Positions 5,796-58,119 of a stretch of DNA of 64,000 nt are shown piece by piece (positions within the stretch are counted from its first letter, which is position 1; every line of letters starts with the position of its first letter). The stretch lies in the UHGV virus genome UHGV-1558314; one strand, given 5' to 3'. Under the pieces are notes generated by a model, which saw nothing but the letters and a program-made list of their open reading frames with translations, had not been told where the DNA came from and ran no database searches. Source of the stretch: a virus. The position numbers were made by a program, and so were the translations under genes.

Positions 5796-5846
5796 TATAT
5801 GTTGATATTGTACAACATGCAAAATGCACTTGCATTTTGATACAAC
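5796..5846 (-). promoter_or_regulatory. conserved intergenic motif copy 1 (putative promoter/operator) upstream of the Mre11-Rad50 gene
   Basis: tatatgttgatattgtacaacatgcaaaatgcacttgcattttgatacaac; contains palindrome TTGTACAA and inverted repeat CAAAATGCA-ct-TGCATTTTG; ends ~50 bp upstream of ATG 5775. Confidence 0.45.
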
Positions 5847-9572: not shown

Positions 9573-9623
9573 TATATGTTGATATTGTACAACATGCAAA
9601 ATGTATTTGCATTTTGATACAAC
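9573..9623 (-). promoter_or_regulatory. conserved intergenic motif copy 2
   Basis: tatatgttgatattgtacaacatgcaaaatgtatttgcattttgatacaac; near-identical to copy 1 (2-3 substitutions). Confidence 0.45.
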
Positions 9624-15289: not shown

Positions 15290-15405
15290 AATATATTGTA
15301 CAACATGTATTGAGCTTTTGCACAACATATGTTGTTAAAATATCATCATTGTACAACATAAAGCGCATATTTGCACGTTGTGTTGCTAAAAATATTGTTA
15401 TTGTA
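15290..15405 (-). promoter_or_regulatory. cluster of three TTGTACA(A/C) boxes upstream of gene 13883..15265
   Basis: attgtacaacatg, cattgtacaacat, ttattgtacacaa within ~110 bp. Confidence 0.4.
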
Positions 15406-21701: not shown

Positions 21702-21787
21702 CGCAATAAATTTTTAGAAAGTTTAACAAAAAGTTTGAAATGAACTCTTCAGAAAATCTTCAGAAGTTTATTTGTTATTTGTATATG

Positions 21788-21838
21788 TATTGTGCAACAT
21801 GCATATTCATATTGTATATGAATATGATACAACATGCG
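21788..21838 (-). promoter_or_regulatory. motif variant with 10-bp inverted repeat, upstream of gene 20568..21701
   Basis: tattgtgcaacatgc...atattcatat-tgt-atatgaatat...gatacaacatgcg. Confidence 0.4.
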
Positions 21839-21852
21839 AATATCATTTGCAC

Positions 21853-28858: not shown

Positions 28859-28861
28859 TAA
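28805..28861 (+). CDS. leader ORF copy 2 (MKTPQFWFERQQGLAGGL*) with G7 tract
   Basis: ATG 28805; G7 at 28849-28855; stop TAA at 28859-28861; about 75 percent nt identity to leader copy 1. Confidence 0.3.
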   Translation: MKTPQFWFERQQGLAGGL

Positions 28862-30017: not shown

Positions 30018-30094
30018 TATCAAAACAACATCTTAGTTGTTTTGCATCTTGCATCAAAACAACATCTTAGTTGTTTTGCATCTTGCATCAAAAC
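30018..30094. repeat. tandem direct repeat, 34-bp unit x2.3, each unit with a 9-bp-stem hairpin
   Basis: tatcaaaacaacatcttagttgttttgcatcttg / catcaaaacaacatcttagttgttttgcatcttg / catcaaaac; internal inverted repeat caaaacaac-atctta-gttgttttg. Confidence 0.8.
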
Positions 30095-30985: not shown

Positions 30986-31047
30986 AGTCGCATATGCAGC
31001 TTCAAGTAGTGAACCATCTGCTTTGTTGATAGTGCCGCTGATAATAG

Positions 31048-31160
31048 TGTCACGAAGAGCCCCCCCGCGATTGACTGCTGGCGTTCAAACCAGAGTTGAG
31101 TAGTTTTCATAAGCGAAAAGACTTTTTGTATGTGAAATTTATTGACATATTATATATCAG
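31048..31160 (-). repeat. promoter/leader module, copy B (inverted partner of 28016..28133)
   Basis: Reverse complement reads ctgatatataatatgtcaataaatttcacatacaaaaagtcttttcgcttATGaaaactactcaactctggtttgaacgccagcagtcaatcgcgggggggctcttcgtgaca. Confidence 0.8.
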
Positions 31161-42446: not shown

Positions 42447-44057
42447 TCAACATTCTACATACGAGCCATCAGTGTTTTCAACAAGCACTTTGATGCTCAA
42501 GCCCACATCTGTGCCTTGCTGACTTCTTATCAATGGCACAATGTTTTTTGATTGTGGTGCAATGTTGCCCATATTGTCAATGTGCTCGTCATTGCCAATA
42601 AACTGTACATCCACTGATTTGATGACATCAAGCTCTTCAAGTTTTGCAATTGCAGCAGAACGACTAACGAATGTCGATGCATTTGACCATGAGTCTTCTA
42701 CAAATGTTTTTGCAGCATCAAGCAATTGCTGCTTGACGTCTTCTATATTTTGCAGTACTGCGGTCTTTTTGACAAGAATGAGCATCTGATAAAATTCAAG
42801 TTGCACAGTGTCAAATTGTACATCAGTTAGCAGCACATAGTCACCAGTGTTTTCAATAGCATTGTTCAGATATTGTCTATCTATAGAGTCAATCGTAAAT
42901 TCTGCTATTGGCAATGACCAGTAGTCATACACTATTGAGCCTGCTTTGACATACTTGTCTGCAATGTTGGGCACCAGTACAACATGAATTGTCTGAGTCT
43001 CTGTATTTGACCAGACATCAAGTATCTTATACTGGCCAAAACGTGACATGAATGCTCTGATTGAATCTGCTGAGTGCAACACAAGTGCCCTGTTAATTGA
43101 GCCTGCATGTGAACGTATCGATTCGATGTCTTCACCATTGTAACCACCTACAATGTCTGTCAACTGTTCAATGACTAATACACCCTTTGGGCTTACAGCA
43201 GTAGTGTTTGCATCATACATGCCATTGACCCATTCAAATGTTGCATCATTGTCAATCAAAATGTTTCCTGCATAGCCCTCACATGCAGTGTATTCTACAT
43301 TGACGACTGCATTTTGTGCAGGAATTTGACCAGCAGTACCATTGCCAAACACAATCTGTAGTTTGCCATCATATGACCAGCGTTCAATGTACCCCTTGCT
43401 GTATCGGTCCATTTCATCAAACCCTGCATAGCAAGTCCACAGCTCATTGCCAACTGTGACAGTCAATGAATCCTCAGACACAATCAAGTTGCGCTCTTCG
43501 ATAGTGAATGTTGTCATTGACTCACCATCAGAAATATATTGCTGAGACTTGCGTTCACCTTGTCTAACTGCGAATTCATATCGTACACCCGTCAACTCAT
43601 TGTTGATGTTGAGTTGCGCAAAGTCTTGATGCATGTCGATGTAGTACATCAGCGAGTTCTCTTTGCATTTAATTGCAGCATATCGCTTAATGAACACAGT
43701 CGGGCCAAGCTCTTTAACTGCGTCATATGAAAAACTTAATGCAATTTTGCCTGATGCTGCAATGCCACCAACACATTTGTAGCATGCAAGCTGCGCAAGA
43801 CCTCGTACAGATGCAGTTTGTTCTGCAGTAAGCAAGTTGTTTTCTTTTGTGCCTACTACAATTTGCGTAAAGATGAGTGACGCAAGTTCTCTGAAACTCT
43901 GAACAAGAATTCCAAAAATTGTATATTTGCCATACTGCTTCTTTGTAGAGTTCAGCAAATTCTGCAGCCAAGTATCTATAGACTGTGACACGCCTGAATA
44001 TGACATTTGCATTTTCTGCATCCATGTCATATTGTCACGAGTGTTATTTGTGCGCAT
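42447..44057 (-). CDS. hypothetical protein, probable virion protein (start trimmed to ATG at 44057)
   Basis: ORF-track N-terminus (to 44159) reads through a 30-bp tandem DNA repeat (CAHSKRxIL x2); first plausible ATG downstream is M35 at 44057. Confidence 0.45.
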   Translation of the reverse strand: MRTNNTRDNMTWMQKMQMSYSGVSQSIDTWLQNLLNSTKKQYGKYTIFGILVQSFRELASLIFTQIVVGTKENNLLTAEQTASVRGLAQLACYKCVGGIAASGKIALSFSYDAVKELGPTVFIKRYAAIKCKENSLMYYIDMHQDFAQLNINNELTGVRYEFAVRQGERKSQQYISDGESMTTFTIEERNLIVSEDSLTVTVGNELWTCYAGFDEMDRYSKGYIERWSYDGKLQIVFGNGTAGQIPAQNAVVNVEYTACEGYAGNILIDNDATFEWVNGMYDANTTAVSPKGVLVIEQLTDIVGGYNGEDIESIRSHAGSINRALVLHSADSIRAFMSRFGQYKILDVWSNTETQTIHVVLVPNIADKYVKAGSIVYDYWSLPIAEFTIDSIDRQYLNNAIENTGDYVLLTDVQFDTVQLEFYQMLILVKKTAVLQNIEDVKQQLLDAAKTFVEDSWSNASTFVSRSAAIAKLEELDVIKSVDVQFIGNDEHIDNMGNIAPQSKNIVPLIRSQQGTDVGLSIKVLVENTDGSYVEC

Positions 44058-44083
44058 ATCAGTTAATTTGTTTGTATATGTAT

Positions 44084-44160
44084 TCGAATGTGCACACATG
44101 AGAATAGGTCTCTTCGAATGTGCACATATGAGAATAAGTCTCTTCGAATATGCGCACAAA
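44084..44160. repeat. tandem direct repeat, 30-bp unit x2.5
   Basis: tcgaatgtgcacacatgagaataggtctct / tcgaatgtgcacatatgagaataagtctct / tcgaatatgcgcacaaa. Confidence 0.8.
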
Positions 44161-44188
44161 AAGAAGAGCTTGCATATGCAAGCTCTTC
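44153..44188 (-). terminator. rho-independent terminator after gene 44231..44614
   Basis: Palindrome gaagagcttgcatatgcaagctcttc followed on the minus strand by TTTTTGTGC. Confidence 0.55.
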
Positions 44189-44230
44189 CATCGCCAAAAC
44201 CTATCTAATTATGGAAACACCTCTGAAAGG

Positions 44231-44614
44231 TCAAATTATGAATCGTTTTGTGATTGGCCTGAAGTCTTCTGGCAAATCATAACGTTTTGTGATTGTTACA
44301 TCGCAAACAAGCAAATCGTTCATTTGTGTAGCAGATTTTGTAATGAAACAGTTGACAGACCATTCAAACAAATGCTGCGTAACGCTATAGTTTTTGAGTG
44401 CAGTAATGATATGTGATTGAATTGTTGCTGTCGAAATGCTTCTGTGATAAAGCGCAGCATCAATCTTCTCGACATCAAACATAATGTCAATTTCATTCAA
44501 AAAGACACGCAATGAATCTGTTGTTTGCAATTCATCATCTTCTTGAGTTTCTACAAAGTCAATACCTTGTAGCTCTTGTGACATTTGTGATGTATCGAAA
44601 CGATTATCTGACAT
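44231..44614 (-). CDS. hypothetical protein
   Basis: 127-aa ORF followed by a hairpin terminator. Confidence 0.45.
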   Translation of the reverse strand: MSDNRFDTSQMSQELQGIDFVETQEDDELQTTDSLRVFLNEIDIMFDVEKIDAALYHRSISTATIQSHIITALKNYSVTQHLFEWSVNCFITKSATQMNDLLVCDVTITKRYDLPEDFRPITKRFII

Positions 44615-44620
44615 GATATG

Positions 44621-45931
44621 CTATGCTGTTTGTTGAACATTGACAGTCACAAGCACCTGTTTACCAGGCTCCTGCGATTTCATTTGACGTGACACTTCAA
44701 TGAATGCATCAAGCAATTGCGCAGGTGAAACAGTCATGCCTTGCTCCATAAGCTGCTTACGCAATGCTGCGATTTGCTGACTTGCATTTTGGTCATTGCC
44801 AATTGACAACATTAGTGAATCAAGTCGACGTCCAAGTTCTGCAACTTTAAGTTGAATTGACTGCAATTGCGATGCTGAATCTGCAAGTTGACTGATAGCT
44901 TGCATGTACAAATCAAGCGACACGCCATCAATGTTCGACACTTCAATTGGTGCAAGGCCGACATTGCATGAGCTTACTCGAGTGCAAATGCGAAATGCGA
45001 TTGCATTTGCAGAGCCATCATCAGACATTGCTTTCTTAACAAAGCGTTGCATGCTATAGCCTCTGCCACCTGATTCTTCATATCGATTGACAAAGAACAA
45101 TGAGTGCAAGCATCGTGTTTTGATAGATGGATTTGACTGCAGCCAAACATCACAATACAATGCAATGCAATTGAATTCAATGTCTTCATTGAATGTTTCA
45201 TAATCTGAGAACTGCAGCTTCAATCTGTCAACTGCACGGCTCAAACTGTATCGACTTGCAGGTTCTACGACATCTGCATTGTCATAGATTGCTTTTGTGA
45301 ATGTCGTGTCGCCATCTTCAAGACCTTGCGCGTTTTCTTGAAATGTTTCTGGCACATAGCCAACTTCAATGTCTGGATATGTTGCAGCAGTCCACTTTGC
45401 ATTGCATCGCTTTGCATTTGCAGGTATGTACAGATACTGTTCTGTGTATGACATGCCGTTAAGCTCAACTACACCAAAATCTATCGCATTGCCAATGTAT
45501 GTAACAAGCGGCTGCCAATCTGAACGTTGCACGAATGCTGCGCCATCTGCAGTAGACTCAAGTTCAAGAGCAGAAGCCTTTTGAAACATCTTCCACAACG
45601 CAGATTCTGTGAATGTTTCATTGGCAGACTCCAGCAATGACGTTGCAAGCAATGAGCAGTTGTCGAGGTAGTTTTGACACAATGCTGGCACAAGAGCATT
45701 GGCGTCTTCGACCATCGTAGTGTCATTGAACTCTGATGGATGCACAAAGAACTTTTGCCCATTGTGCTCAGCGTCATTGTACCAATCTGGAATGTTCAAA
45801 CAAGCAAACACAGATGGTGACACGACAATGTCGTGATTTAATGTCGCATTTGTCAGTAGCGTATTTGTGTCAGTGAACACAAGTACAGTGCCTTGTGTTA
45901 ACTTTAACGGGTCGAAAACGGAAACTCTCAT
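44621..45931 (-). CDS. hypothetical protein, probable structural protein
   Basis: 436-aa ORF. Confidence 0.45.
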   Translation of the reverse strand: MRVSVFDPLKLTQGTVLVFTDTNTLLTNATLNHDIVVSPSVFACLNIPDWYNDAEHNGQKFFVHPSEFNDTTMVEDANALVPALCQNYLDNCSLLATSLLESANETFTESALWKMFQKASALELESTADGAAFVQRSDWQPLVTYIGNAIDFGVVELNGMSYTEQYLYIPANAKRCNAKWTAATYPDIEVGYVPETFQENAQGLEDGDTTFTKAIYDNADVVEPASRYSLSRAVDRLKLQFSDYETFNEDIEFNCIALYCDVWLQSNPSIKTRCLHSLFFVNRYEESGGRGYSMQRFVKKAMSDDGSANAIAFRICTRVSSCNVGLAPIEVSNIDGVSLDLYMQAISQLADSASQLQSIQLKVAELGRRLDSLMLSIGNDQNASQQIAALRKQLMEQGMTVSPAQLLDAFIEVSRQMKSQEPGKQVLVTVNVQQTA

Positions 45932-45933
45932 TG

Positions 45934-46368
45934 TTATAAAATTGTCAATCGATGCTCTGCATCAGTTTGCTCACTGTTAAATGTCACTGTCACTGAGTGC
46001 TCAGTGTCATTGAAACTTGCAATGCATTCATGCTCAATGCCTGCAATTCGCAAATGCACATCAGCAAAAGTCTTGTCAATTGTTGATTTGATGACATACA
46101 CATATTGCGGTGCTTGTGATTCAAGTCGAGTAACAGTCACATACTGATTGTCTACTTGCTCTTCACTATTTACAAGCTCAGTCAATGTTGGCTTTACTAC
46201 ACTGACATGTGCAAACTGCAATGCTTTAAGTACTGCTTTGCTTCTTGAATCTACTTGTTGCTGATTTGACACCAGCAGTTTGATTGCAGAGTATGGTGTC
46301 TCTACATTAGCATCAATAGTATTGAGTGCAATAGGCTTTACAGTAGCCAAAAATTCTGCAAGTGTCAT
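45934..46368 (-). CDS. hypothetical protein
   Basis: 144-aa ORF. Confidence 0.45.
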   Translation of the reverse strand: MTLAEFLATVKPIALNTIDANVETPYSAIKLLVSNQQQVDSRSKAVLKALQFAHVSVVKPTLTELVNSEEQVDNQYVTVTRLESQAPQYVYVIKSTIDKTFADVHLRIAGIEHECIASFNDTEHSVTVTFNSEQTDAEHRLTIL

Positions 46369-46369
46369 A

Positions 46370-46900
46370 TTATGAAAGCTGAGCCGTAGTGTACCAAGTT
46401 AAGTCAGATTCATTGTACGTCAATGCAATTGTAAGAGCTTGACCAAGTTGCTGTGACAATTGCTTACATGAATCAATGAATGCTTGCATATCTGCATATG
46501 ACTTTGTGTAGAACATGCCCCATTCTGTTGTATTGACTGCGACATTATGAACATCTGCAAGATGACAGACTTCTACAGATGATACATTAAAGTCTGAGCC
46601 ATCTTCATCAACATGATGCACATTGTTTGCGCACCAATACTGATACAAACGAGCTTTGTCTGATGCAGTCATGTCAAACTGCATGCGTTGAGCAATTGAT
46701 TCATCGACATTATCAATGAATTGCTTTGCTGACTTTGATTCAAGCATCGCATGATGCAGTGTATGATTTGCATGCCAGTCTGGAGTGCCGATTGCTACGC
46801 TAAGCTGATTTTCAAACACAAATTGTTGTGCTTGAGCTTCTTCGTAGCATTGTGTCCATGTCTTTGTCATGTTGTTTATCTTAAGTTTGTATATGTACAA
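46370..46900 (-). CDS. hypothetical protein
   Basis: 176-aa ORF. Confidence 0.45.
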   Translation of the reverse strand: MYIYKLKINNMTKTWTQCYEEAQAQQFVFENQLSVAIGTPDWHANHTLHHAMLESKSAKQFIDNVDESIAQRMQFDMTASDKARLYQYWCANNVHHVDEDGSDFNVSSVEVCHLADVHNVAVNTTEWGMFYTKSYADMQAFIDSCKQLSQQLGQALTIALTYNESDLTWYTTAQLS

Positions 46901-46987
46901 ATAATGTTGATGTTGTATTGAAGCATCGCAAAATAAGGCCAGACTACTCGGTTGAGCTTGCCTGGCCTTTCAAATGCATTTTGCTTA

Positions 46988-47884
46988 TTACAGTGTTCCG
47001 CAAAGCAATTCACGTAAATCCATGCCGGCTTGTGTACTGTACTGAGCAATAAGATTACGTTCTGAATCAGACATACTCCAATAAATCTTATGCAGAGCTC
47101 TACGAATAATAGTATGAATGCCAGATGTGCTACAATTGAACTTCTTTGCAAGTTCTGCATGAGTTAACAAATCAGCATCGCCAAGGCCATACACATGTGT
47201 GAGTACAAGCTTTTCATTTTGAGTGAGTTGTTCAAATGCTCTTTGCAGAATCTTTGTGATACGTTTGTGAGCATCTTCGATTTCAAGAACTTCTTGGCCT
47301 GTTTTGAAGTCTGACCTCAAATCATTCTGAACTGGTGACCATGCGTCACCATCTTTGTCAAGTGTAGTGTCATCCTTGCTGATGAATTGCTTGCCTTCAA
47401 GAGCTCTTTCATATGCTCCACGAATACCAGTAGATAATTGTTGACTTGTCAGATTGAGTTCGTCAAGCACATATTTCTTAATCCAAGGATATGCATATGT
47501 GCTAAACTTTGCTTCACGAACTCCTGCAGGCAATACGCCTTCTACGTAATTCTTGGCTGCTATTGACAATCCAAGATTGCCTGCTTGAATGACGTCATCA
47601 AATGGAACCGAGCGTTTGCCAGATGCGAACCATAAGCTTCGTGCAACTGATATGACCAATCTTAAACAAGATTTGATAAGAGCTTCACGATTTTCTTGAG
47701 TCTTCTTGAATCGAGTAACATCACAATATCGCTTTGCAGTAGCCAGCGATTTGACTTCTTCAGGAGTAAGCTCATTCTCCATCCTCATTTGCTTGAGCTC
47801 TTCCTTTGTGTATAGACGTTCTCTTGTGATTCTACCTACGTCCTTTACGTAGCCTTGATTGATTTGTGAATTTGAACCTGCCAT
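46988..47884 (-). CDS. sigma-70-family RNA polymerase sigma factor
   Basis: Region-2-like LRLVISVARSL...FDDVIQAGNLGLSIAAKNY; region-4 helix-turn-helix LTQNEKLVLTHVYGL...LTHAELAKKFNCSTSGIHTIIRRALHKI. Confidence 0.75.
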   Translation of the reverse strand: MAGSNSQINQGYVKDVGRITRERLYTKEELKQMRMENELTPEEVKSLATAKRYCDVTRFKKTQENREALIKSCLRLVISVARSLWFASGKRSVPFDDVIQAGNLGLSIAAKNYVEGVLPAGVREAKFSTYAYPWIKKYVLDELNLTSQQLSTGIRGAYERALEGKQFISKDDTTLDKDGDAWSPVQNDLRSDFKTGQEVLEIEDAHKRITKILQRAFEQLTQNEKLVLTHVYGLGDADLLTHAELAKKFNCSTSGIHTIIRRALHKIYWSMSDSERNLIAQYSTQAGMDLRELLCGTL

Positions 47885-48017
47885 GGTTGTGTAACTTATT
47901 TAGTTTTAATTTGTTATATAAATTTAATCATTTTTTGTCACATATGAAAATGTTTTGCACATTATTGTCACATAAAGTGTAAAAAAGTTATGAACATTTT
48001 GTTAACACATGTAGACA

Positions 48018-49640
48018 TCAAACCATTTCATTCAACTTGTCGACGTTCTTTTTAGCGTCTGCACTTTGTACAAATGCATAGACATTATCATAGACTTTGC
48101 TAATTGCTGCATCTGTGTAATCATAGAAGCTGTGTCGAGTTCTTGAAGTTCTGCCACCTTTGATGCCAAGTGATGCTTTGTCAGAATCTGATGGTTTCCA
48201 ATATGTTCGTCCAAACCCCGTAGATAGAATCATACTTTCCACGCCAGACCTATCTCGTGGCATAGCATGTTTCAAATGGCAAGTTACAATGAAGTCAGTT
48301 GGAAAGTCATCATAGCCAAGCTCACTTGATGCAGGTTGAATGTCAGTCTTCGTTAAGATAAGATTGCCAATGCTTGCTATGGGTCGAAGTGGGTTTCCTA
48401 ATAGCAAGTGCCATTCGCCGATGGCGTCGCCCTTCAACAAACTATTCATAACAGGAATTGCTGGTCGACCAATAGTGTTCAAGAATTTCGCAACAGCAAA
48501 ACGTTGAAATGCAAGTTTAGCAATCTGCTGCAATTTTTGTTTTGCTGCTTCTTTTCCACCTCCGCTTGCATTCATAATGTTTTGAGCAATGCCTTTGAAG
48601 AAGTCTGTGATTGAGTTGAATGAACCATCAAGCGCATCTTGAATGATTGTAGATTCAAGTTCAAGTGCTTTGTTCCAGAATACTGATGGTTGACCGCCAA
48701 CCCAGTAGCGACCACCTCCCCAAAAACGCGCGTCATTGTATGTGCATTGCATCACATTGCTCAACAAGTCAAGCATTGCTGTTTTGGGATTGATTCCATC
48801 AATCGACTTCAATGAATAAAAGAATTTGACAGTCAATTCATGCTCAAAGTTCAAGCCGACATCACGAATATGCGTTTGTGTAATTGAATCAATTGGGCCA
48901 TAGACTTTATTGTGGTCATGTGTCGGGTCTATTGACAGTCGTGCTTTGCCACGCATTTGGTCTTTTGCATACACTGGGTCCATCAATTTTGCTACTCGGC
49001 CCATCCAGCCACTGATGCCATAATTGCCTCCACTGTCACCACGCATTTCGCCTTGCTCCAATGCAGCAGACAATTCTTTCCAACGCATGCCAAAACTGAA
49101 GCTCAACAAATCTTCAAGTTTGTTGTTTTCACCATCAAACCACGTAATCATATGAGCGATTTCAGGTGTTTGCTGAACTGTTGTGTTGAAGATGTCATCT
49201 TGACATGGCTCAGCAAATCTGCGCAATGTTATGAGTCTGTTGTTTGGGATTTGACCAAGAAATCTGCAATATGCAAAGTCTTGCCAATCGTATGTTGATG
49301 CGCCAATGGGGTTGTTAATGATATTTGCTGCAGTAGGCGTCAAGTATTGCAGGCCTTGCAAGTCTTGGTCAAAGTACACAGTTTTGCCATCAGGCAATTG
49401 CGGTGCTGCAAATAGATTCCATGCATTGAACAAAGACTGCACACCTTGTTTTGATGCATCTTCTGCACCACGAGGCATATCAGCATTGAGTTTCTTTTCA
49501 TAAAACCCGTGCTCATAATCTGTCTCTTGTGCAAATGCGCCTGTCAATGTGCTATTATCTGCATTGAGCTTATTGTCTTTTGGCGGAGCTATTGTAGCCA
49601 TATCTTCAAATGTATTTAGGATATGTACCAAACATAACAA
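48018..49640 (-). CDS. hypothetical protein, probable virion protein
   Basis: 540-aa ORF; start may be the internal MATIAPPK. Confidence 0.45.
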   Translation of the reverse strand: MLCLVHILNTFEDMATIAPPKDNKLNADNSTLTGAFAQETDYEHGFYEKKLNADMPRGAEDASKQGVQSLFNAWNLFAAPQLPDGKTVYFDQDLQGLQYLTPTAANIINNPIGASTYDWQDFAYCRFLGQIPNNRLITLRRFAEPCQDDIFNTTVQQTPEIAHMITWFDGENNKLEDLLSFSFGMRWKELSAALEQGEMRGDSGGNYGISGWMGRVAKLMDPVYAKDQMRGKARLSIDPTHDHNKVYGPIDSITQTHIRDVGLNFEHELTVKFFYSLKSIDGINPKTAMLDLLSNVMQCTYNDARFWGGGRYWVGGQPSVFWNKALELESTIIQDALDGSFNSITDFFKGIAQNIMNASGGGKEAAKQKLQQIAKLAFQRFAVAKFLNTIGRPAIPVMNSLLKGDAIGEWHLLLGNPLRPIASIGNLILTKTDIQPASSELGYDDFPTDFIVTCHLKHAMPRDRSGVESMILSTGFGRTYWKPSDSDKASLGIKGGRTSRTRHSFYDYTDAAISKVYDNVYAFVQSADAKKNVDKLNEMV

Positions 49641-49649
49641 AAGCTTGAC

Positions 49650-50141
49650 TTATTCAGTCAAGCTTTGTTCAGAAAGTTCAATAATTTGTGTTTCGTATAG
49701 TCGTCTTAGTTCATCAAATCTTACACAGTTTTTGTCATACAGTGTAGCAAGACCTTGCAATGCTTGTTGTTTGCTTGTCCATACAATGTCAGCAGTCAAA
49801 TCCCATAACCACTTTTGTGCATAATAGAACTTCCAGTCATGCCAAAATGCATGTGCAGTAATTTGCTGTTCTTTATCATCAATGTAGATAAAGTGATGTG
49901 TTGGATTGCCACTTTCAAGATCTACAAATCTGAATGTCTTGTTTGCTACATGCTCAGCAATCCATTCATCAGATGCAATGACTTCTTGCAATGCGCATTG
50001 ATAATAGTAACGCTTTGCAATGTCAAAGTGACGAACAACTACGCCACGAAACAGTGTCCACAGCCAAGGCTCTTCTTCTGAACTTCTAATCCAGTAGACT
50101 TCTTGATTGACTGGCAGAAAATCGTAGTGAACGAGGTCCAT
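49650..50141 (-). CDS. hypothetical protein
   Basis: 163-aa ORF. Confidence 0.45.
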   Translation of the reverse strand: MDLVHYDFLPVNQEVYWIRSSEEEPWLWTLFRGVVVRHFDIAKRYYYQCALQEVIASDEWIAEHVANKTFRFVDLESGNPTHHFIYIDDKEQQITAHAFWHDWKFYYAQKWLWDLTADIVWTSKQQALQGLATLYDKNCVRFDELRRLYETQIIELSEQSLTE

Positions 50142-50144
50142 TGC

Positions 50145-50723
50145 TTACAGATGCACATTGACACTTGTCACAAGGTCGCAATCAATCAATGCTTTGAGCG
50201 TGTCAATTTCATTGTAGCCAAATGCGCGTGTAGCAGCAAGCACATGATTGACATCTACTGCAGCAGTAATGTCGACTACAACAGTCTTGTCATCTTCAAG
50301 TGGCTGCAAACGCTTGATGAGTTGATGCAGCATATCGTCTGCAGGTGCGCTTAGCTGCTGTGCTGGATATGCCGGTATATGCTGCACTGGTTCAATTGGT
50401 GATGTTATTGGCGATGTAGTTGCTGGTGACACTGGTGCAATTGGTACTACATGCTGTACTGGTGCGATGACTTCAGATACAACACTGCCATCTGCAGCAG
50501 TTGTAGTTACGCTTGGAATCACAATTGGCTGAGAAAATACGTCATCTTGAGGGCGATTCCATGTTTCAATTTCAGACAATGCATAAAGACGATTTTGACT
50601 GTCCCATGCCTTATCAGCTTCTTCGTCAATTGCAACAATTGTTCGAATTTCTGCCGTTGCTGGCCTATCGCCGTTTTCGAGCTGTTCAATGACTCTGATA
50701 GGCGCTATTGATGTTCGTGCCAT
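50145..50723 (-). CDS. hypothetical protein (start trimmed to ATG at 50723)
   Basis: ORF-track start at 50780 is a TTG inside the intergenic motif; first ATG is 50723 (MARTSIAPIRV...). Confidence 0.45.
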   Translation of the reverse strand: MARTSIAPIRVIEQLENGDRPATAEIRTIVAIDEEADKAWDSQNRLYALSEIETWNRPQDDVFSQPIVIPSVTTTAADGSVVSEVIAPVQHVVPIAPVSPATTSPITSPIEPVQHIPAYPAQQLSAPADDMLHQLIKRLQPLEDDKTVVVDITAAVDVNHVLAATRAFGYNEIDTLKALIDCDLVTSVNVHL

Positions 50724-50738
50724 GTTTGGATGGTTTTT

Positions 50739-50810
50739 TATATTGTACAATATGCAAAGTGCTTTTGCACTTTGATGCAAAGTACTGCGTACACAACATG
50801 CAATGTATAA
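50739..50810 (-). promoter_or_regulatory. motif variant with inverted repeat CAAAGTGC-tttt-GCACTTTG, upstream of gene 50145..50723
   Basis: tatattgtacaatatgcaaagtgcttttgcactttgatgcaaagtactgcgtacacaacatgcaatg. Confidence 0.4.
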
Positions 50811-50895: not shown

Positions 50896-53800
50896 TTATC
50901 GTACGATGAATGGCTTGTTGGTATCTTCAATAATCATTGAGCCAATGCCATGCAACTCTTGAGTAACCTCGACAGATACGTCTTGTGCAGTGTTGTACGA
51001 GCACTTGAATGCTGCAACTCGACTAAATGCGTCAATGTCTGAGTAACTGAGTTCATCGACTTGCATTGAGATTTCACCAATTGCTGGCGTAGTCTTTGAT
51101 GGCGTAATTGTGATGTCATGCAGCCAACCCGGATTGCCAACTATGACTGCTGTCAATGATTCGCCATCAATAGGATTGACGATTTCATAGTTGAAGTTTA
51201 GTGTCTTTGCAGCATCATCAGTTGTTGCTGATGCAGGTGTAATGTTGATTGTTGTTACGCCTTTAGCAGCTTGAACAACTTGTGCAGTGACATCTTGAGC
51301 ATTGATGTGAGAGAACTTAACTGAGCAGCTACGTTGTTCTATCGTTAAGTTGCGGTCACATTCAATAGTCAAGTAGCCCTTGCCAGTATTGTCATCGTAT
51401 TCGAAGTTTGTGTCAGTAAATGTGCCGTCATTATCAAGAACTTCATATGACAATTGCTGCCCTGCAATTGGATTACTAACAGTGATTTCGAATTGTGCTT
51501 GAGTGTCAGTTGACTTCAATTGAGCATTCATTGGCTCAACAATTATCATTGATACACCTTGAGCTGCTTGTGTGATGCTGACCGTTACATTGTCAGCAGT
51601 CATGTATGACAGTCTCAAGTATAAGTTACGAGTAGCTGTTGCAGTGTTGATGTCAAGCGCAAATTGTATTGTGCCAGCTGACATGTTTACTGCAGGTTCG
51701 CCAACAAAGCCAGAGCCCTCTGCTGTAACTGTTAATGTTTCGCCTTCAATAGGATTAGTGATGCTAAAGTTAACTGTGAACGAACCGCCATTAGCTGCTG
51801 CGTTGATTGTCAATGGTTCAGCATTGATGACTGTAGCTTCTTTAGCTGCTTGAGTAAGCAATACTGCTACATTGTCAGCAGTTGGATATTGCAGTACAAT
51901 ATTTGCTGTACGAGCAGTTGTTTGCAATGTCTTGTCATAATCAAATGTAATCTTGTCATCAGCAACTTGAACGTTGTGAATCCAACTTTCTGTAGCATAT
52001 GCAGTGACTGCTGCACCAGCAAAGCCATTACGAATTTGATATGCAATTTCAGCTGAACCACCAGCTGCATTAAGTGACATAGAGCTTGTGACAATGATTT
52101 CGGGTCTTGTTGAAACACCTGTGCTGTATTGAACAACAGAAGCTATTACACGAGGCTCAAATATAACAGCATTTGCAGAACCGCCAAATGTAGGTGTTGC
52201 AATCACATAGATTGGCCAAACTCCACTTGATGCGACATTACGTAAGATTGCTTGATAATGCAGTTCATTGCATGCATCTTGCAATTCACTCCACGTTTTT
52301 GTAGTGTCAATTGATGTCAAGCATGCTGGCAATACTGCGCATGTTGATGGCTTATCAGCATCAATTTGTGTTGCAGCACCACCTGATACTGGTCTGTAAC
52401 TCAAGTCGACTTTAACAGATGCATAGCCATTGCCATACACAATAAATGGCACTGTGATATCGAGCAAAATATCTACAGTTGCAGGCATGTTCAGATATGC
52501 TGGCAGTGGTACAAGCGTTTGCATTGCTGTCGTGCCTGGCACATGGTCATCGAATGATTCAACATACACAGGTGGTGTCAAGTCATCTTTATGCGCATAT
52601 TCTGCATGAGTGTGGTCTGAATGTGATACTGTGCTTGCATAACCAGACCCAGCAAAGTCTTTATTGAATGCAGACTTCTTTGCTTCTTCAGTCAATCTGC
52701 CGGAGCCATCATATGTCAGCACAGTATTTGATGAGCCAATACCTGCCGCAAGATGATTTGAGCCATCAATGAAGACATGCTTGTATTGACGTTCAAACAA
52801 ATGAGCATCAAAATTGTCAAATATCGAATTGAACAACTTTTTGACTGCAGATGCTGTAGGCAGATGCTTGTTTGCATTTGCGCCATCGATAATGATGCTT
52901 GACCAATTGTCTGAGCTCTTGAAGATGCTAAGAAGCATATCAACAACTTTGCCAGTAGCATCTGTGCCAAGAACACTTGCACCGGGCAGTTTCATCAATT
53001 GCAAGTCGACTGTTGCAGCAAGTTTAAGCAACTGCTTTGTCAATGTCAGAATGTCTGTGACAACTCCAGCATCTGACAATGCTGCAATGCGATATGACTG
53101 ATTGATGAGTTGCGCAAACTTATATGCACGAATGAATGACTCTCGCTTTGCTTCTGCATCCAAGCCTTTTGCCAAGAACAACTCATCATATTTCAGATTT
53201 GCATATGACAATATGTCAAGCTCATTGACTGCAGATGTAAAATGATTGCGAAGTCTAATGCCCTCATATGACTGCCACAATGCAGCCAAATCAGCAAATG
53301 ACTTGACATGTGAATCATCTGATGCAAAGCCAAATACAAGACCACTGTTAAAGTCATTTTGCAGCAGCATATGCGGAAAAGCATCAATGCCTGGCAACTG
53401 ATTCTTTTTGTCTGCATCAAGACGATTCAGTGTTCGTTGTGTGAGGTCGTAATAGTAATATGGATTGCCCAATATCTGCATAACTGGCTTTGCTACTTTG
53501 TTGTTTGCATTGCCAAGTCCATCGATTTGTGTATCACTCGGTGCAAGCAGAATAACTGAGCTGTCAACGTTATTGTATCGAGGCACGCTTTCAAGCCCTA
53601 TTGACAACGCACCTGTATGCTTGTTTGAGTAGTTGTTGTCGATTTCTGCGCCAGGCTGCCCGTCTGCAGCAATGTTGAACATTGCTGCATATGACTTGAT
53701 TGTGCCGCCATACTTTGTTTTGATGAGCTCTTCAATGATTTGCGTAATGATGACATTCAAGTTATCATTGTCACTTGTCAGCAATTGCAAGCCCGTAAAT

Positions 53801-54303
53801 TGCCACCATTGAGCATCATTTGATGATGCATCATACCAGTACACCTTGCCATCTGGTGCAATGACCCAGTCTGCGTATGACAAAGCGTCTGTATGCAAAA
53901 TGTTGCAAAACGCAGGTTTGTTTGCATCTGAACAGAACTCATTGAATGCTGCAGCATCGACAACTTTTGCAGTACCTGCGTCATTTTGCGTAGCTGACCA
54001 ATCACTGCCAAACACTGTATTTATATCAGCAAGTGATGCGTACATAATGCGGTTGCCTCGATAGCCATCGAAGCCAGGCAAGCCACGGTCGCCAGTTTCA
54101 CCAATGCGACCCTTAAATAGGGGTGAATTCACAATTCTACTGAAATTGTAATTCAAAATTTCACACAACTCTGCATAAGATGTGACTTGAAGTTTTTTCA
54201 GTACAATTGGCTGTGCTTTATGTTCTGCAGACATGTTGTTCAGATATTTTGCTTTGTATATGTATTCGAGACTTTGTTGAGAATCGTCTGTCACTATGTG
54301 CAT
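50896..54303 (-). CDS. tail-fibre-like protein with short collagen-like Gly-X-Y run and C-terminal tandem Ig/BACON-like repeats
   Basis: GRIGETGDRGLPGFDGYRG (6 Gly-X-Y triplets); repeated units ...ADNVTVSITQAAQG / ...AQDVTAQVVQAAKG. Confidence 0.55.
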   Translation of the reverse strand: MHIVTDDSQQSLEYIYKAKYLNNMSAEHKAQPIVLKKLQVTSYAELCEILNYNFSRIVNSPLFKGRIGETGDRGLPGFDGYRGNRIMYASLADINTVFGSDWSATQNDAGTAKVVDAAAFNEFCSDANKPAFCNILHTDALSYADWVIAPDGKVYWYDASSNDAQWWQFTGLQLLTSDNDNLNVIITQIIEELIKTKYGGTIKSYAAMFNIAADGQPGAEIDNNYSNKHTGALSIGLESVPRYNNVDSSVILLAPSDTQIDGLGNANNKVAKPVMQILGNPYYYYDLTQRTLNRLDADKKNQLPGIDAFPHMLLQNDFNSGLVFGFASDDSHVKSFADLAALWQSYEGIRLRNHFTSAVNELDILSYANLKYDELFLAKGLDAEAKRESFIRAYKFAQLINQSYRIAALSDAGVVTDILTLTKQLLKLAATVDLQLMKLPGASVLGTDATGKVVDMLLSIFKSSDNWSSIIIDGANANKHLPTASAVKKLFNSIFDNFDAHLFERQYKHVFIDGSNHLAAGIGSSNTVLTYDGSGRLTEEAKKSAFNKDFAGSGYASTVSHSDHTHAEYAHKDDLTPPVYVESFDDHVPGTTAMQTLVPLPAYLNMPATVDILLDITVPFIVYGNGYASVKVDLSYRPVSGGAATQIDADKPSTCAVLPACLTSIDTTKTWSELQDACNELHYQAILRNVASSGVWPIYVIATPTFGGSANAVIFEPRVIASVVQYSTGVSTRPEIIVTSSMSLNAAGGSAEIAYQIRNGFAGAAVTAYATESWIHNVQVADDKITFDYDKTLQTTARTANIVLQYPTADNVAVLLTQAAKEATVINAEPLTINAAANGGSFTVNFSITNPIEGETLTVTAEGSGFVGEPAVNMSAGTIQFALDINTATATRNLYLRLSYMTADNVTVSITQAAQGVSMIIVEPMNAQLKSTDTQAQFEITVSNPIAGQQLSYEVLDNDGTFTDTNFEYDDNTGKGYLTIECDRNLTIEQRSCSVKFSHINAQDVTAQVVQAAKGVTTINITPASATTDDAAKTLNFNYEIVNPIDGESLTAVIVGNPGWLHDITITPSKTTPAIGEISMQVDELSYSDIDAFSRVAAFKCSYNTAQDVSVEVTQELHGIGSMIIEDTNKPFIVR

Positions 54304-54321: not shown

Positions 54322-57300
54322 TCATTGCCACTCTACAATGCACCTTGCTGCACCTTGTTGAGCTTCAAATTGCACTGTGATATATGAATTTGAACTGTCT
54401 CTGTTCAATGCAATTGGCATGATGAGCTGACCTGTAAAGACATCATAGAATGTCAATGTTGGTTGCAGCAGTTTTGCAATCAAGTAATTTGCATATTGCA
54501 TTGATTTTGCATTGTCACCAAGCAACTTTGCAAGTGCAGCTACAAGCGATAAACGCTGTTCTGCACCAGCAACATCAGGTAATTGCAGTTCTGCTGTTTT
54601 TGTTGCAGCAACAGACATAATTGCTGCGAACATGCAAAGTTCAAACACTGTAGGGCCTTCGATATGCTCAAATGCGCCATCAAGCCAAACTCTCGACAAT
54701 TGCGTTGACAATGGGCTAATAACTTGTTCTACTGTAAGAACTTCATTGTCAATCAATGCCCACAAATGAACTGAACTTGACTGAGCAAACGCTACTTTGT
54801 GCTGCAAAGACTCATCATTTGCAAGCGCAGACCATTGCGTAACTTGAGTCAATTCAGGCAGACAATATGTGCCATATCGAGTCAAATTGACAAGCAGCTT
54901 ATTTGTTGGACTTGCATTTGCAGGGTCTGCATCAATGATTTGCTGCTGCATAAACTTTTGCATTACTGCAATTCCGTCAAGCGCATTGATTGCATCACGT
55001 TGATTGTAGAATGCTATTGGCGCGAATCTGTGAATCATTGTTTGCATTGTTGGCATGACTTGCATTACAATGCTTGTCATCATTGACTCAAGAATTCGTG
55101 GTCTAACAGAGCCCTCAATAAATGCATCGACGTCATTGTCAAATGTCACAGCAAGCTCTGTTTGTATCATATGTTGAGGCCAACTGTATGTTTCACCAGA
55201 CTCGTATTCAATTGATGGAATGATGTCTTTGACCCAGATGATTGCTTCTGTGTCATTCAGCAAGTTCACTTCAATTACATCGAATAATTGTACAAATGCA
55301 GTCTTATATGCTACTGCACTTGTCCAGTTTGTTATGTCAAGTTTGACATTTGTGCCTACAATGAAGATGTCCTTAATTGAGAACAAGTTTTGCAATGCAA
55401 TAACTTTGATTGCAATGTCAATTGAGCCGTCATCATTTATGACGATTGGCTTGTCTACTGTAGTGCCTTTGTATGGAAAGCTTGCGACAGTTTTGCTAAG
55501 CGGATAACAGTTGAATGCTACATCTACTTGTGCAATTTTGTTGTCATCAAGAGCAACAATGCTTGAATTGTCATAGTAGATGCTTTTGTCAATTGCAGTT
55601 GTTTGCAAAATGCCATCAAGATTGACAAGAGACTGGTCAATGACTTTGAATGGCAGTACAACTGTCAATGTTTTGAACTTGTTGTTGATGACAAGCTGCG
55701 GTTTGCATTCAAATACGCTGTCACTGTCTACTCTGACTACTGCAAAGCGCCAGCCAACATATGATGATGACACACTGTACTCAACGCCCTTGAACAATGC
55801 GAATGCAGTGATATGGTCTGGCTTGGCGTAGCAGTATGTGTAGCATGGCACTTCAAGAACAGCCTTGTCAGTTACAGCAAATTTATGTGTCAGTTTTGTG
55901 TCAAATACATCGATAGTAGTGTCAGCAAACTCTTTTATGTCAATTGCTTCTGTAGCATATGACTTGCAAAGCAGTTTTGCATGCTGATGCTGCAGCACAT
56001 ATTCAGGGCAGCCAGACCCTTCAACAAACCAGCTATAATTAAATGAATCCAGTGCAATGCCTGTTAAGCGTTCATATGGCGCAAACCCTGTGCAGTTGAA
56101 TGCTATTGAATTGTTTGCTCTGTATTGCTTGTTCAACGCATCAGTAGCTTCAACTGCAGCAAAATGGCATTGATGAATATTGGGCTTGTTGTCATCATTA
56201 ACTGCAAGGTCGTCAAATCTGTCATAGACAGAATCAGAAAATATCAATGCAGAGTCTTTTGACTCAAGAGTCTTGATTGCGTTTGGTTGTGAGTTGCCTT
56301 GCAATTGCTTAACATGCTGAGCTATTGCATCAATATATTGCATACGTTTTGACTTTTCTGCTGCAGCAGTCATGTTAGTAGCCCATGCATCAATATCGAA
56401 TTCTGTGTTTGTTGTCAGTCTCAATTCAGACTCATAGAAGCCTGACCAGTCATACACATCATGCAATCTGCAAAGTCTGGCTTGTGCAGCTTGAATTTGC
56501 AGCATGTCAAATGCAATTTTGACTGCAATGTCTGGTAGCACATCATCTACAAGCACTACAAGCGAATCAGTAGTTGTCAATGACTCATCAATTTCTGAAA
56601 GAGTCAACAATTGACGAATTCGTACTTTAATTGTATCAGTGTCATTAAGATGTAGCAACAATGCATTTGCAGTTTGCAAGTACTGTCGCATTGTAGCACT
56701 AATGACAAGTGAGTTGTTGACAGTAACTGCTGCATCAAATTGCACAGTTTGGCTGCTGTACGTGCTTTTCTTGTACATAGACCATGGCAGCAAAACTTCA
56801 ATGTCAACATCATTTGAGTTACAATTTGTCTCAATTCGTAGTCTTGGATTGCTTTCTGCACTGTACTTTGACGATGGCAACACTGTTACAGTGTAGTCAT
56901 ATGTAGACTTTGCTGATGCATTTTTGAATGCTTCAATGAATCTGTCAATGCTTTCTTGCCAGTTTAGACCAAACAAGAATTGATTGTCATCGACTGTTTG
57001 GCCATCTTCCCATGCATACAGACGTTCGCCATCGATGCCAGCATCTTTCATCTGACAAACAACTTGCACATCGACATTGCCATCTACAATGATTTCGAAT
57101 TTTTCACCAGGCGTCATTTTGCCCGTCAATTCCAAATCAAGTGTTCGCTTTCGTGTAAATGTGTTTGGCTTAAGCCCATCATTTGCAGAAAATGATGCTA
57201 CAACAGTTTCTGCATACAGCTTAGATGAATCAAGCAATGTAGGCAATTTGACAGTGTAGCCATCAATGTATGTCAGCAAGCCAAGCGCATCACCAGATAC

Positions 57301-58119
57301 ATATGCATCAATGAATGGCAAATGTGACAATGACATCGTTGGCGTCCACTCTGTCATTTGAGCATCTGACACATACAAGCCGACATATCGATGCTCACCT
57401 GGAGTGACATCTTCAAATTCAAATGACAAGTTGACAATTTGCGAGCATATCAGACCATTGTCTCGCCAAGCTTCTGATAATGCAGCATCAAAGTCATATG
57501 GCGACAATTCTGCGTCATCAATGTTTGGCGCACCAAGTGTGACATCTTTGTATTGCGCAGTGACTGCATCAAAGCCCCATACACGACTTTGCTGATTGCT
57601 GCTATGTGACACAAAACATGCAGCTTCAGACATTGATGCTTGATGCTTTGTCAACTCAACAATGTCTTTCAATCGCCATTGATGAACAAGTACAGCGTCT
57701 TTTATGATGCTTTGCCAATCTGTTGCAGTTAAGTTATCTGAACGCAATACAACAAAGTATTGTGGCATATCTGTCTTTGACAGCAACAATGGTGCAAAAT
57801 ATCTGAACACATTGAGTCGCTTCGTATATCTGCAGCCACACACATATGTCATATCGAACTGTTTTGCAAGTTCGTCATTTTGCTGCATGCCAATGAGTGT
57901 GCTTTGTTGCACATTGCAAATCTTCGATATGCCCCACTTAAGACGAGACCACATTGCAGCAGCATTGTCTGCATATGAGCCTGCATTCGAGTCAAACTCA
58001 AGTGAACTTGAATTTGTAAGTGGCGCAAACTTGACTTTGCTATACATGTCTACAATGCATTGTACATCGCCAGACAGCAATGTATTTGTGCGAAACAGTG
58101 CTTTTGATTCGTGTATCAT
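54322..58119 (-). CDS. large virion/tail protein, function unknown
   Basis: 1265-aa ORF between the fibre-like and TM-rich giant proteins. Confidence 0.5.
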   Translation of the reverse strand: MIHESKALFRTNTLLSGDVQCIVDMYSKVKFAPLTNSSSLEFDSNAGSYADNAAAMWSRLKWGISKICNVQQSTLIGMQQNDELAKQFDMTYVCGCRYTKRLNVFRYFAPLLLSKTDMPQYFVVLRSDNLTATDWQSIIKDAVLVHQWRLKDIVELTKHQASMSEAACFVSHSSNQQSRVWGFDAVTAQYKDVTLGAPNIDDAELSPYDFDAALSEAWRDNGLICSQIVNLSFEFEDVTPGEHRYVGLYVSDAQMTEWTPTMSLSHLPFIDAYVSGDALGLLTYIDGYTVKLPTLLDSSKLYAETVVASFSANDGLKPNTFTRKRTLDLELTGKMTPGEKFEIIVDGNVDVQVVCQMKDAGIDGERLYAWEDGQTVDDNQFLFGLNWQESIDRFIEAFKNASAKSTYDYTVTVLPSSKYSAESNPRLRIETNCNSNDVDIEVLLPWSMYKKSTYSSQTVQFDAAVTVNNSLVISATMRQYLQTANALLLHLNDTDTIKVRIRQLLTLSEIDESLTTTDSLVVLVDDVLPDIAVKIAFDMLQIQAAQARLCRLHDVYDWSGFYESELRLTTNTEFDIDAWATNMTAAAEKSKRMQYIDAIAQHVKQLQGNSQPNAIKTLESKDSALIFSDSVYDRFDDLAVNDDNKPNIHQCHFAAVEATDALNKQYRANNSIAFNCTGFAPYERLTGIALDSFNYSWFVEGSGCPEYVLQHQHAKLLCKSYATEAIDIKEFADTTIDVFDTKLTHKFAVTDKAVLEVPCYTYCYAKPDHITAFALFKGVEYSVSSSYVGWRFAVVRVDSDSVFECKPQLVINNKFKTLTVVLPFKVIDQSLVNLDGILQTTAIDKSIYYDNSSIVALDDNKIAQVDVAFNCYPLSKTVASFPYKGTTVDKPIVINDDGSIDIAIKVIALQNLFSIKDIFIVGTNVKLDITNWTSAVAYKTAFVQLFDVIEVNLLNDTEAIIWVKDIIPSIEYESGETYSWPQHMIQTELAVTFDNDVDAFIEGSVRPRILESMMTSIVMQVMPTMQTMIHRFAPIAFYNQRDAINALDGIAVMQKFMQQQIIDADPANASPTNKLLVNLTRYGTYCLPELTQVTQWSALANDESLQHKVAFAQSSSVHLWALIDNEVLTVEQVISPLSTQLSRVWLDGAFEHIEGPTVFELCMFAAIMSVAATKTAELQLPDVAGAEQRLSLVAALAKLLGDNAKSMQYANYLIAKLLQPTLTFYDVFTGQLIMPIALNRDSSNSYITVQFEAQQGAARCIVEWQ

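Follow-up and report, generated by a model that had tools for sequence, protein, structure and literature searches.

We analyzed a stretch of 64,000 nucleotides (the window) from the UHGV virus genome UHGV-1558314, and we focused on a gene at positions 46988 to 47884 of the minus strand that encodes a sigma-70-family factor. The window covers part of a genome of at least 175 kb, of which more than 100 kb lies outside view. Nearly all genes of the window are on the minus strand and are thus read toward lower coordinates. The part between 64 kb and about 30 kb contains virion-type genes, including those for two proteins of more than 1100 amino acids and one of 1442 amino acids. The genes from about 29 kb down to position 1 form a T4-like set for replication and nucleotide metabolism, which includes a gp32-type single-stranded DNA-binding protein (SSB), a UvsW-like helicase, a dCMP deaminase, a glucosyltransferase-like protein, and an SbcCD-like protein. 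Neither Rfam families nor tRNAs (ARAGORN) were found in the window.

A phage sigma factor with sigma2 and sigma4 domains

The open reading frame (ORF) begins with an ATG at 47884, ends with a stop at 46988, and encodes a protein of 298 amino acids. A model that had been given only the letters of the stretch and a list of its ORFs (the sequence-only reading) called a sigma-70-family factor here, and curated models agree with that call. The protein scores above the cut-offs of Pfam Sigma70_r2 (PF04542; 34 bits, cut-off 24), Pfam Sigma70_r4 (PF04545; 31 bits, cut-off 24.1), and the NCBIfam sigma-70 superfamily model TIGR02937 (69.5 bits, cut-off 42.9, residues 65 to 267), and it matches phrog_351, annotated as "RNA polymerase sigma factor" (E 3.8e-26). 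The gene product is a phage-encoded sigma-70-family factor with a sigma2 and a sigma4 domain (Table 1). Neither a sigma3 domain nor region 1.1 was detected (PF04539 and PF00140 were without a match in the Pfam search). Likewise, the protein approaches none of the equivalog cut-offs for RpoD, RpoS, RpoH, and FliA (57 against 354 for TIGR02393 and 53 against 379 for rpoS), and it is not a group 1 or group 2 (RpoD/RpoS-type) sigma factor.

Alignment with solved SigA and RpoD chains places the core-binding segment of region 2.2 (DVIQAGNLGL) opposite DLIQEGSLGL of SigA, and the melting and -10 segment KFSTYAYPWIKKYVL opposite KFSTYATWWIRQAIT. In the same alignment, the melting segment KFSTYAYPWIKKY is the counterpart of KFSTYATWWIRQA in SigA. 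The core-binding and melting segments are invariant across a 10-member alignment of the family and near-identical in gp1, the homologous protein of the cultured phage PAU. The sigma4 domain differs in that all residues that read the -35 hexamer in sigma-70 are substituted (CSTSGIHTII versus VTRERIRQIE), and the recognition helix also varies among lineages in the family alignment. These conserved residues suggest that the protein would bind core RNA polymerase (RNAP) and direct promoter-specific initiation. An AlphaFold2 model built from the 10-sequence alignment was of low confidence (predicted local distance difference test score of 51.6), with residues 147 to 200 mostly unstructured, and was too poor for fold searches.

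A small subfamily in jumbo phages of Bacteroidota

Homologues from cultured phages are 27 to 32% identical to the window sigma. They comprise PAU gp1 (32%; BLASTP E 2e-22), ORF-168 of Tenacibaculum phage PTm1 (phmmer E 4.7e-13), and ORF23 of Chryseobacterium phage MA9V-1. All of them share with it a YAY(P/A/H)WIKKY segment and an insertion in region 2, and the window sigma is clearly a member of this PAU gp1-type subfamily. The subfamily is small: among 1.84 billion representatives, only four clusters at 50% identity gave full-length matches at E<=1e-62. It is confined to jumbo phages of Bacteroidota related to PAU, PTm1, MA9V, and the Lak phages.

Protein homologues place the window in a clade with PAU, the Tenacibaculum phages PTm1, PTm5, and pT24, the Chryseobacterium phages MA9V-1 and MA9V-2, a Flavobacterium phage, and the Prevotella Lak megaphages. 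With PAU, PTm1, and MA9V-1 it shares the gp32-type SSB, the UvsW-like helicase, and homologues of PAU gp265 to gp269 and gp14. No close DNA relative was found among 50,697 phage records, including by a megablast search with 8 kb around the sigma gene, and an IMG/VR contig of 174.6 kb carries a sigma gene that is 99% identical. The host is very probably a member of the Bacteroidota because the window has no Shine-Dalgarno sequences, BACON domains occur in its proteins, and all cultured relatives infect Bacteroidota. The host of PAU, named as Sphingomonas, is actually a Sphingobacterium (PMC3738902).

Sigma homologues are known from jumbo phages that lack an RNAP of their own and are assumed to redirect the host enzyme (PMC7824862, PMC13282480). 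Within this RNAP-less group 2, minimal and RpoD-like sigmas have been described along with gp33 (Iyer et al. 2021, PMC7824862). Such homologues are already catalogued, and the annotation is sound but unsurprising. The regulon has been characterized for none of the sigmas of PAU, PTm1, and MA9V-1.

Gene neighborhood and flanks of the sigma gene

The genes transcribed after the sigma gene encode proteins of 166, 144, 436, and 127 amino acids, followed by a baseplate-wedge protein (phrog_219, E 1.7e-21) and larger proteins. The 436-amino-acid protein is a homologue of PAU gp14 and PTm1 ORF-171. The placement before small proteins and large virion genes had been read correctly from the letters, but the factor had also been put at the head of the structural block, and this is not where it lies. 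The tape-measure-like gene 58125-61847 (phrog_4372) and the genes 54322-58119 and 50896-54234, whose products carry BACON-like repeats and are homologous to PAU gp265 and gp266, are transcribed earlier. Because virion-type genes precede it, the sigma gene heads only a baseplate sub-module.

The order of the 527-amino-acid gene, sigma gene, terminator, genes for about 170, 150, 436, and 127 amino acids, and wedge gene is kept in three other metagenomic lineages, whose sigmas are 55 to 61% identical. In PTm1 the sigma gene likewise stands before the baseplate module, and the stretch from sigma to wedge (ORF-168 to ORF-173) matches the window, with synteny to ORF-171, ORF-173, and ORF-177; nucleotide-metabolism genes precede the PTm1 sigma gene, in contrast to the window. 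The PAU backbone is interrupted, with gp265 to gp269, about 30 small genes, gp1, tRNAs and capsid genes directly after gp1, and then gp14.

The AT-rich region of about 130 bp that had been pointed out upstream of the sigma gene is present (Table 1), and no strong hairpin was found in it. It holds a block (TGATTAWATTTATATAAC; TAnnTTTA) that occurs once in the window and is kept in PAU and in the relatives L001, L003/L004, and L005, and PTm1 and MA9V-1 have an exact TAnnTTTG in its place. A scan of IMG/VR for the exact 14-mer ATGTTGTACAATAT returned single chance matches only and was uninformative. Behind the sigma gene, the 87-nt gap folds at -29 kcal/mol into a terminator hairpin with a U-tract next to it, and relatives have terminators at the matching place. 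No terminator lies between the 527-amino-acid gene and the sigma gene. With a block like the host -7 box in its AT-rich upstream region and a strong terminator behind it, the sigma gene would form a transcription unit of its own, and transcripts that start at the promoter-like element of the 527-amino-acid gene might extend into it by read-through as well.

Two promoter-like elements in the window

Two classes of conserved elements precede genes in the window, and we refer to them as class B (a single box, TACATATACAAAC) and class A (a bipartite element that includes TTGTACAA). Class B was recovered by a Gibbs sampler from upstream regions of the structural blocks in the window and in three relatives, as (TTTG)TACATATA(C/A/T)AAAC. 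It has no -35 box and often lies right behind the T-run of a terminator, 16 to 50 nt before a start codon. All seven exact copies of TACATATA are on the coding strand, the opposite strand having none, and five of them are in intergenic DNA, which makes up 5.9% of the window. With at most one mismatch to TACATATACAAAC, sites stand before the first gene behind the sigma terminator, the wedge gene, the gene for a 1112-amino-acid protein, and the SSB gene, and weaker copies front the 527-amino-acid gene and others. Overall, class B stands before baseplate, fiber-like, and other virion genes and before a few replication genes.

The same element is present in the relatives L001, L003, and L005. PAU carries 24 copies of TATACATA in 100 kb, all in gene orientation, and these precede the genes for the capsid decoration protein, the terminase, and gp264 to gp268, as well as some replication genes. 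In PTm1, ATACATA(T/C) is found before the head completion and tail sheath genes, among others. Class B is thus conserved clade-wide, as far as PAU and PTm1. As a separate observation, three tandem units of about 31 nt, the last of them partial (GTGCACAT(A)TTCGAAGAGACYTATTCTCATRT), fill positions 44083 to 44158 of the minus strand between the terminator and the class B site that front the wedge gene, and they may be a binding array for a regulator.

Table 1. Positions of the sigma gene, its surroundings, and the promoter-like elements in the window
Feature	Position	Strand	Remarks
Sigma-70-family gene	46988..47884	-	Region 1.2-like N-terminus; sigma2 (PF04542), residues 69-143; linker, residues 147-200, poorly modeled; sigma4 helix-turn-helix (PF04545), residues 216-267
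AT-rich intergenic region upstream of sigma	47885..48017	-	133 nt; GC 0.23 versus ~0.41 in the window
Conserved block TGATTAAATTTATATAAC upstream of sigma	47913..47930	-	Holds TAAATTTA, which differs at one base from the Bacteroidota -7 box TAnnTTTG
Putative degenerate class A-like element GTGCAAAA-N13-TGACAAAAA	47930..47960	-	Upstream box perfect, spacing right, -10 poor
Two ATGTGACAA(T/A)AA direct repeats	47932..47973	-	30 nt apart
Intrinsic terminator right after sigma	46929..46967	-	GGCCAGGC...GTCTGGCC, then TTATTTTG
Conserved 527-amino-acid gene directly upstream of sigma	48018..49601	-	Homologue of PAU gp269, PTm1 ORF-011, MA9V1_019, and Lak-phage proteins
Baseplate sub-module	42447..46870	-	Genes for 166, 144, 436, and 127 amino acids, then gp6-like wedge gene 42447-44030; order kept in PTm1
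Class B, TACATATACAAA(C)	46886..46897	-	16 nt before the first baseplate-operon gene, 46370-46870
Class B	44071..44082	-	Upstream of wedge gene 42447-44030; behind terminator 44162-44189 and three tandem ~31-nt repeats
Class B	54253..54264	-	Upstream of the probable start (54234) of the 1112-amino-acid BACON-like virion protein
Weaker class B-like, GTACATATCCTAAATAC	49612..49628	-	Behind terminator 49640-49666; upstream of the 527-amino-acid gene
Class B	21778..21789	-	Upstream of the gp32-type SSB gene; immediately downstream of two class A sites
Class A, GTGCAAAAGCACTTTGCATATTGTACAAT	50742..50770	-	Sole one in the virion block; upstream of 50145-50723; L001 has the same at the orthologous place
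Class A	21824..21852	-	Upstream of the gp32-type SSB gene; second variant (TTGCACAAT) at 21787-21802
Class A, two tandem sites	15295..15376	-	15295-15323 and 15348-15376; upstream of 13883-15265 and the dCMP deaminase gene
Class A	9584..9612	-	Upstream of 8591-9325 and the glucosyltransferase-like gene group
Class A	5807..5835	-	32 nt upstream of the SbcCD-like gene 1849-5775

The TTGTACAA motif occurs in eight exact copies where 2.6 are expected, a number reached in 1 of 100 shuffles. Five of these copies, together with two variants, are part of a 29-nt bipartite element on the coding strand, RTGCAAA-N13-TTGTACAAT, and the seven sites align over about 30 nt as RTGCAAA-N13-(A)TGTTGTACAATAT; the remaining three copies are isolated and within coding sequence. 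All seven class A sites are intergenic and on the coding strand. Their boxes are 16 to 17 nt apart, and TACAAT has the shape of a canonical -10 element. Six of them are upstream of replication or nucleotide-metabolism genes, and none of the seven precedes a baseplate, fiber-like, or other large virion gene in the window. The one in the virion block precedes a pair of genes for 192 and 163 amino acids to which no function is assigned.

Class A elements of the relatives front the same kinds of genes in lineage-specific forms: GTGCAAA-N11-TTGTAGTACAAT in L128, GTGCAAA-N13-TCGTACAAT in L129, GTGCATT-N12-TGTAGACTAT or TGTAGATAAT in L127, GTAGTATAAT as a class A-like form in PAU, and possibly TTGTTTAATACAAT in PTm1. 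Two further observations concern structure at these sites. At three of the seven window sites (5815-5840, 9592-9617, and 50750-50775, minus strand) the upstream box and spacer are palindromic (for example CAAAGTGCAAAAGCACTTTG), which is not so at the other four; the palindrome could be an operator for a dimeric regulator. We rejected the upstream-box hairpin as a terminator since no T-run follows and it is absent from four of the seven sites. In the PAU record, five hairpins with a conserved loop (AAACTGAAACTT) are found at 25502, 26336, 35801, 39405, and 219304 (loci L136 and L133), with stems that differ yet stay complementary in four of the five and with GTAGTATAAT directly after each. This combination, which is found in the small-gene region and upstream of gp1, resembles a terminator-promoter cassette.

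Promoters of the Bacteroidota are said to follow the consensus TTTG-N19-21-TAnnTTTG, which is attributed to Bayley et al., 2000. The window has three matches to this host type against 2.3 expected, none of them rightly placed, and neither 100 kb of PAU nor the gut relatives show enrichment. The PTm1 locus is enriched, with six -7 boxes where 0.9 would be expected in 759 nt of upstream sequence, and a full host-type promoter, TTTG-N18-TATTTTTG, ends 28 nt before the ATG of its sigma gene. A scan of the window for E. coli-type sigma-70 promoters gave 32 matches against 26 expected, which is no enrichment. Because class A and class B are both unlike the Bacteroidota consensus, a phage factor would be needed to read them. 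A different signal may be at work in translation: on the minus strand between 25013 and 27950, ahead of several small genes, the A-rich (C)ATAAAAC recurs 10 to 20 nt before start codons inside operons. Instead of being a promoter, this motif may be a signal for translation initiation of the Bacteroidota type.

Candidate promoters of the sigma factor

The window sigma would most likely bind the core RNAP of the host and replace the primary host sigma, and the reprogrammed polymerase would then start at phage-specific promoters that are closed to the host holoenzyme with its TTTG...TAnnTTTG specificity. Of the two classes, we tentatively consider class B the more likely target, which would make the protein a middle or late sigma that does without a -35 contact. 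Our weight on this assignment stays somewhat short of even; that on class A is what one gives a possible though doubtful reading, and the rest falls on both classes or on neither.

Several findings point to class B. Both the protein and the element are conserved across the clade, and the invariant regions 2.3 and 2.4 of the former parallel an invariant TACATA core in the latter. Among phage-specific elements of the cultured relatives, class B is also the commonest. The PTm1 sigma gene is the final gene with a host promoter ahead of the class B-driven baseplate operon. Furthermore, the sigma4 helix varies among lineages that share the GTGCAAA box, and it is therefore unlikely to read that box; such a helix suits a promoter without a -35 element.

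A competing phage factor was looked for as well. No second sigma or gp55-like protein was found among all ORFs of the window or of about 120 kb of the relatives' loci by phmmer with the gp55 of T4 and the gp55-like protein of Atu_ph07, and a tblastn search of phage records with the same two proteins gave no record of the PAU clade among the matches listed. We also considered a 244-amino-acid ORF at the T4-syntenic position beside the glucosyltransferase-like gene as a sigma candidate, and we rejected it as a membrane protein.

Other points, however, weigh against class B as the target. The element lacks the final T of a canonical -10 hexamer while region 2 of the sigma looks RpoD-like, and class A has TACAAT. 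In L127, the -10 box of class A begins with G rather than T (GACTAT, GATAAT), and the sigma has K changed to R at the equivalent of E. coli Q437, in a single event. In E. coli sigma-70, Q437 contacts position -12. Class B also resembles the T4 late promoter TATAAATA, and the replication module is of T4 type (gp32, UvsW-like helicase, clamp loader), so a gp55/gp33-type system encoded outside the 64 kb could read class B. Indeed, gp33 and both sigma types are reported from the jumbo-phage group (Iyer et al. 2021, PMC7824862).

Alternative roles

The best-surviving alternative, though a doubtful one, is that the sigma reads class A (RTGCAAA-N13-TTG-TACAAT, including TTGTACAA) and serves as a "middle" factor for replication and nucleotide-metabolism genes, with class B read by another factor, for example of the gp55/gp33 type. 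The spacing of the class A boxes and the canonical -10 element (A2, T6) would suit an RpoD-like sigma2 combined with a sigma4, and the strictly intergenic, coding-strand placement of the seven sites and the conservation of the class in lineage variants (L128, L129, L127, and PAU) are in line with this reading. A degenerate class A element is found upstream of the window sigma gene, and a class A-like element upstream of PAU gp1. The substitution in L127, K137R, coincides with the T-to-G change at -12, but this covariation is one event with a chance probability of about 1 in 3. Moreover, the GTGCA(A/T)(A/T) box is kept across lineages whose sigma4 differs at the -35-reading positions (H-T, R-M, N-A), and the class A-like sites of PAU and PTm1 have no comparable upstream box.

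An improbable but consequential scenario, which fits either promoter class, is that the sigma is made late and carried in the virion. The protein would come from a late transcript spanning the 527-amino-acid gene, be stored under the capsid vertices, and be injected with the genome, and the incoming DNA would be transcribed at once by host core RNAP with the phage sigma, so that the host enzyme is switched from the first minute. The idea draws on a note of the GenBank depositors that names PAU gp1 "internal capsid vertex protein (mango) subunit 2" and gp10 subunit 1, and density under the five-fold vertices of PAU has been left unexplained (Hua et al. 2017, PMC5646251). Consistent with it are the conserved synteny of the sigma gene inside the virion block, the uninterrupted passage from the class B-preceded 527-amino-acid gene into the sigma gene, and a perfect class B element upstream of PAU gp1. 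Packaging would also account for the absence of host-type promoters from the window and from 100 kb of PAU.

Nevertheless, the scenario depends on a database note for a distant homologue, and we found no publication behind the "mango" note. PAU gp10 and gp9 have no homologue in the window, and the PTm1 sigma gene appears to be under a host-type promoter, which implies ordinary early expression. In addition, only 64 kb of at least 175 kb was in view, and host-type early promoters may sit elsewhere. We considered whether the 527-amino-acid protein or the sigma could be a counterpart of PAU gp10 or gp270 ("internal capsid protein") and dropped this for want of similarity. The paper on MA9V-1 contains sodium dodecyl sulfate-polyacrylamide gel electrophoresis only and no virion mass spectrometry. 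Phage N4 and phages phiKZ and AR9 package whole polymerases (the N4 virion RNAP and the phiKZ and AR9 virion RNAPs), whereas the phage of the window would, if the PAU note applies, deliver specificity together with its DNA. To our knowledge, the packaging of a sigma factor alone has not been described.

The two weakest alternatives can be set aside briefly. The sequence-only reading had proposed a late-gene sigma with TTGTACAA-type promoters, and this version is very unlikely: TTGTACAA does occur more often than expected and belongs to a real promoter-like element, one copy is in the virion block (50742-50770), and a TTG before the class B site at 46886 yields TTGTACATAT, which agrees with TTGTACAA at seven of eight bases, but six of the seven extended sites stand before replication or nucleotide-metabolism genes and none before a baseplate, fiber-like, or other large virion gene. 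This distribution comes close to motif copies before early genes only, the outcome that the reading itself had named as contrary. What survives of the proposal is the late role, which would be viable through class B rather than through TTGTACAA. It is just as hard to credit that the protein derives from a sigma factor but has become purely structural and lost its part in transcription, for although PAU gp1 bears the capsid note and falls below the Pfam cut-offs, the core-binding and melting segments and the helix-turn-helix scaffold of sigma4 are invariant across the family, and the window protein is above curated cut-offs.

Comparison with other phage transcription systems

If the window sigma does read class B, it would be a phage-encoded specificity factor for virion genes. 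Late transcription in T4 likewise depends on such a factor, with gp55 (sigma2 only, with an NP(F/H)AY...NAF motif), gp33, and the gp45 clamp acting at TATAAATA. The PAU core TATACATA is one position off that sequence, and both promoters are without a -35 box. However, the window sigma has no sequence similarity to gp55 of T4 or Atu_ph07 and, unlike gp55, possesses a sigma4 domain. It does not belong to the gp55 type.

The functional model for a two-domain sigma at class B would be gp36 of phiEco32. This phage sigma, in work attributed to Savalia et al., 2008, J Mol Biol, reportedly directs host core RNAP to abundant middle and late promoters that consist of a single -10-like element, and the early genes of phiEco32 are said to be read by the host sigma. 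The likeness is one of function only, and phiEco32 is a small podophage of a host from another phylum.

In Bacillus phage SPO1, sigma-70-family phage proteins replace the host sigma A in temporal order (PMC13401047). That cascade uses gp28 for middle and gp33/34 for late genes at bipartite promoters with their own -35 and -10 elements, whereas a single sigma is visible in the window. Class A recalls the T4 middle promoters, which depend on MotA and AsiA, in that a -10 element and a conserved upstream box near -30/-35 precede replication genes. In contrast to T4, no MotA or AsiA homologue was identified in the window, and the -10 element of class A is not of the host (Bacteroidota) type.

Other features of the window

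Some observations lie apart from the sigma gene and its candidate promoters. The gene at 1849-5775 (minus strand) is a single ORF of 1308 amino acids that appears to fuse an SbcD-like metallophosphoesterase with an SbcC-like ATPase (phrog_35725, E 7e-113; phrog_77), the T4 counterparts of which are separate (gp47 and gp46). Positions 28024-28157 and 31047-31157 form an inverted repeat (about 110 to 130 nt, 97% complementary), and a third, partial copy at 28801-28859 is direct and 76% identical. Within each copy are an AT-rich, promoter-like part, a G7 run (GCGGGGGGGCTCT), and a common start (ATGAAAAC..., MKTTQLWFERQQ...).

Three separate ORFs, 28137-28769 (plus), 28899-29327 (plus), and 30332-30985 (minus), have a repeat copy at their 5' end, and the shared ATG is out of frame with at least 28137-28769. 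The two long ORFs that flank the repeat are not paralogues. The repeat could reflect phase variation at the homopolymer or frameshifting. Alternatively, a segment of about 2.9 kb where the replication and virion blocks meet could be invertible. An intergenic G8 run (CAGGGGGGGGCATC) in the upstream region at 19500 of the relative L127 recalls the G7 runs of the window. At positions 30019 to 30086, a 34-nt unit (ATCAAAACAACATCTTAGTTGTTTTGCATCTTGC) is perfectly duplicated in tandem, with one hairpin per unit.

Implications

No regulon has been defined for the clade related to PAU, PTm1, and the Lak phages, which includes the abundant Prevotella megaphages of the gut. The locus described here offers two clade-conserved promoter classes that are unlike the host consensus, along with a single conserved sigma factor. 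Should the protein prove to be packaged, this would represent a new route of host takeover in which a sigma rather than a polymerase is carried in the virion. If the assignment of the sigma to a promoter class were settled, the result would be a promoter grammar with which the temporal programs of these uncultured phages could be annotated.

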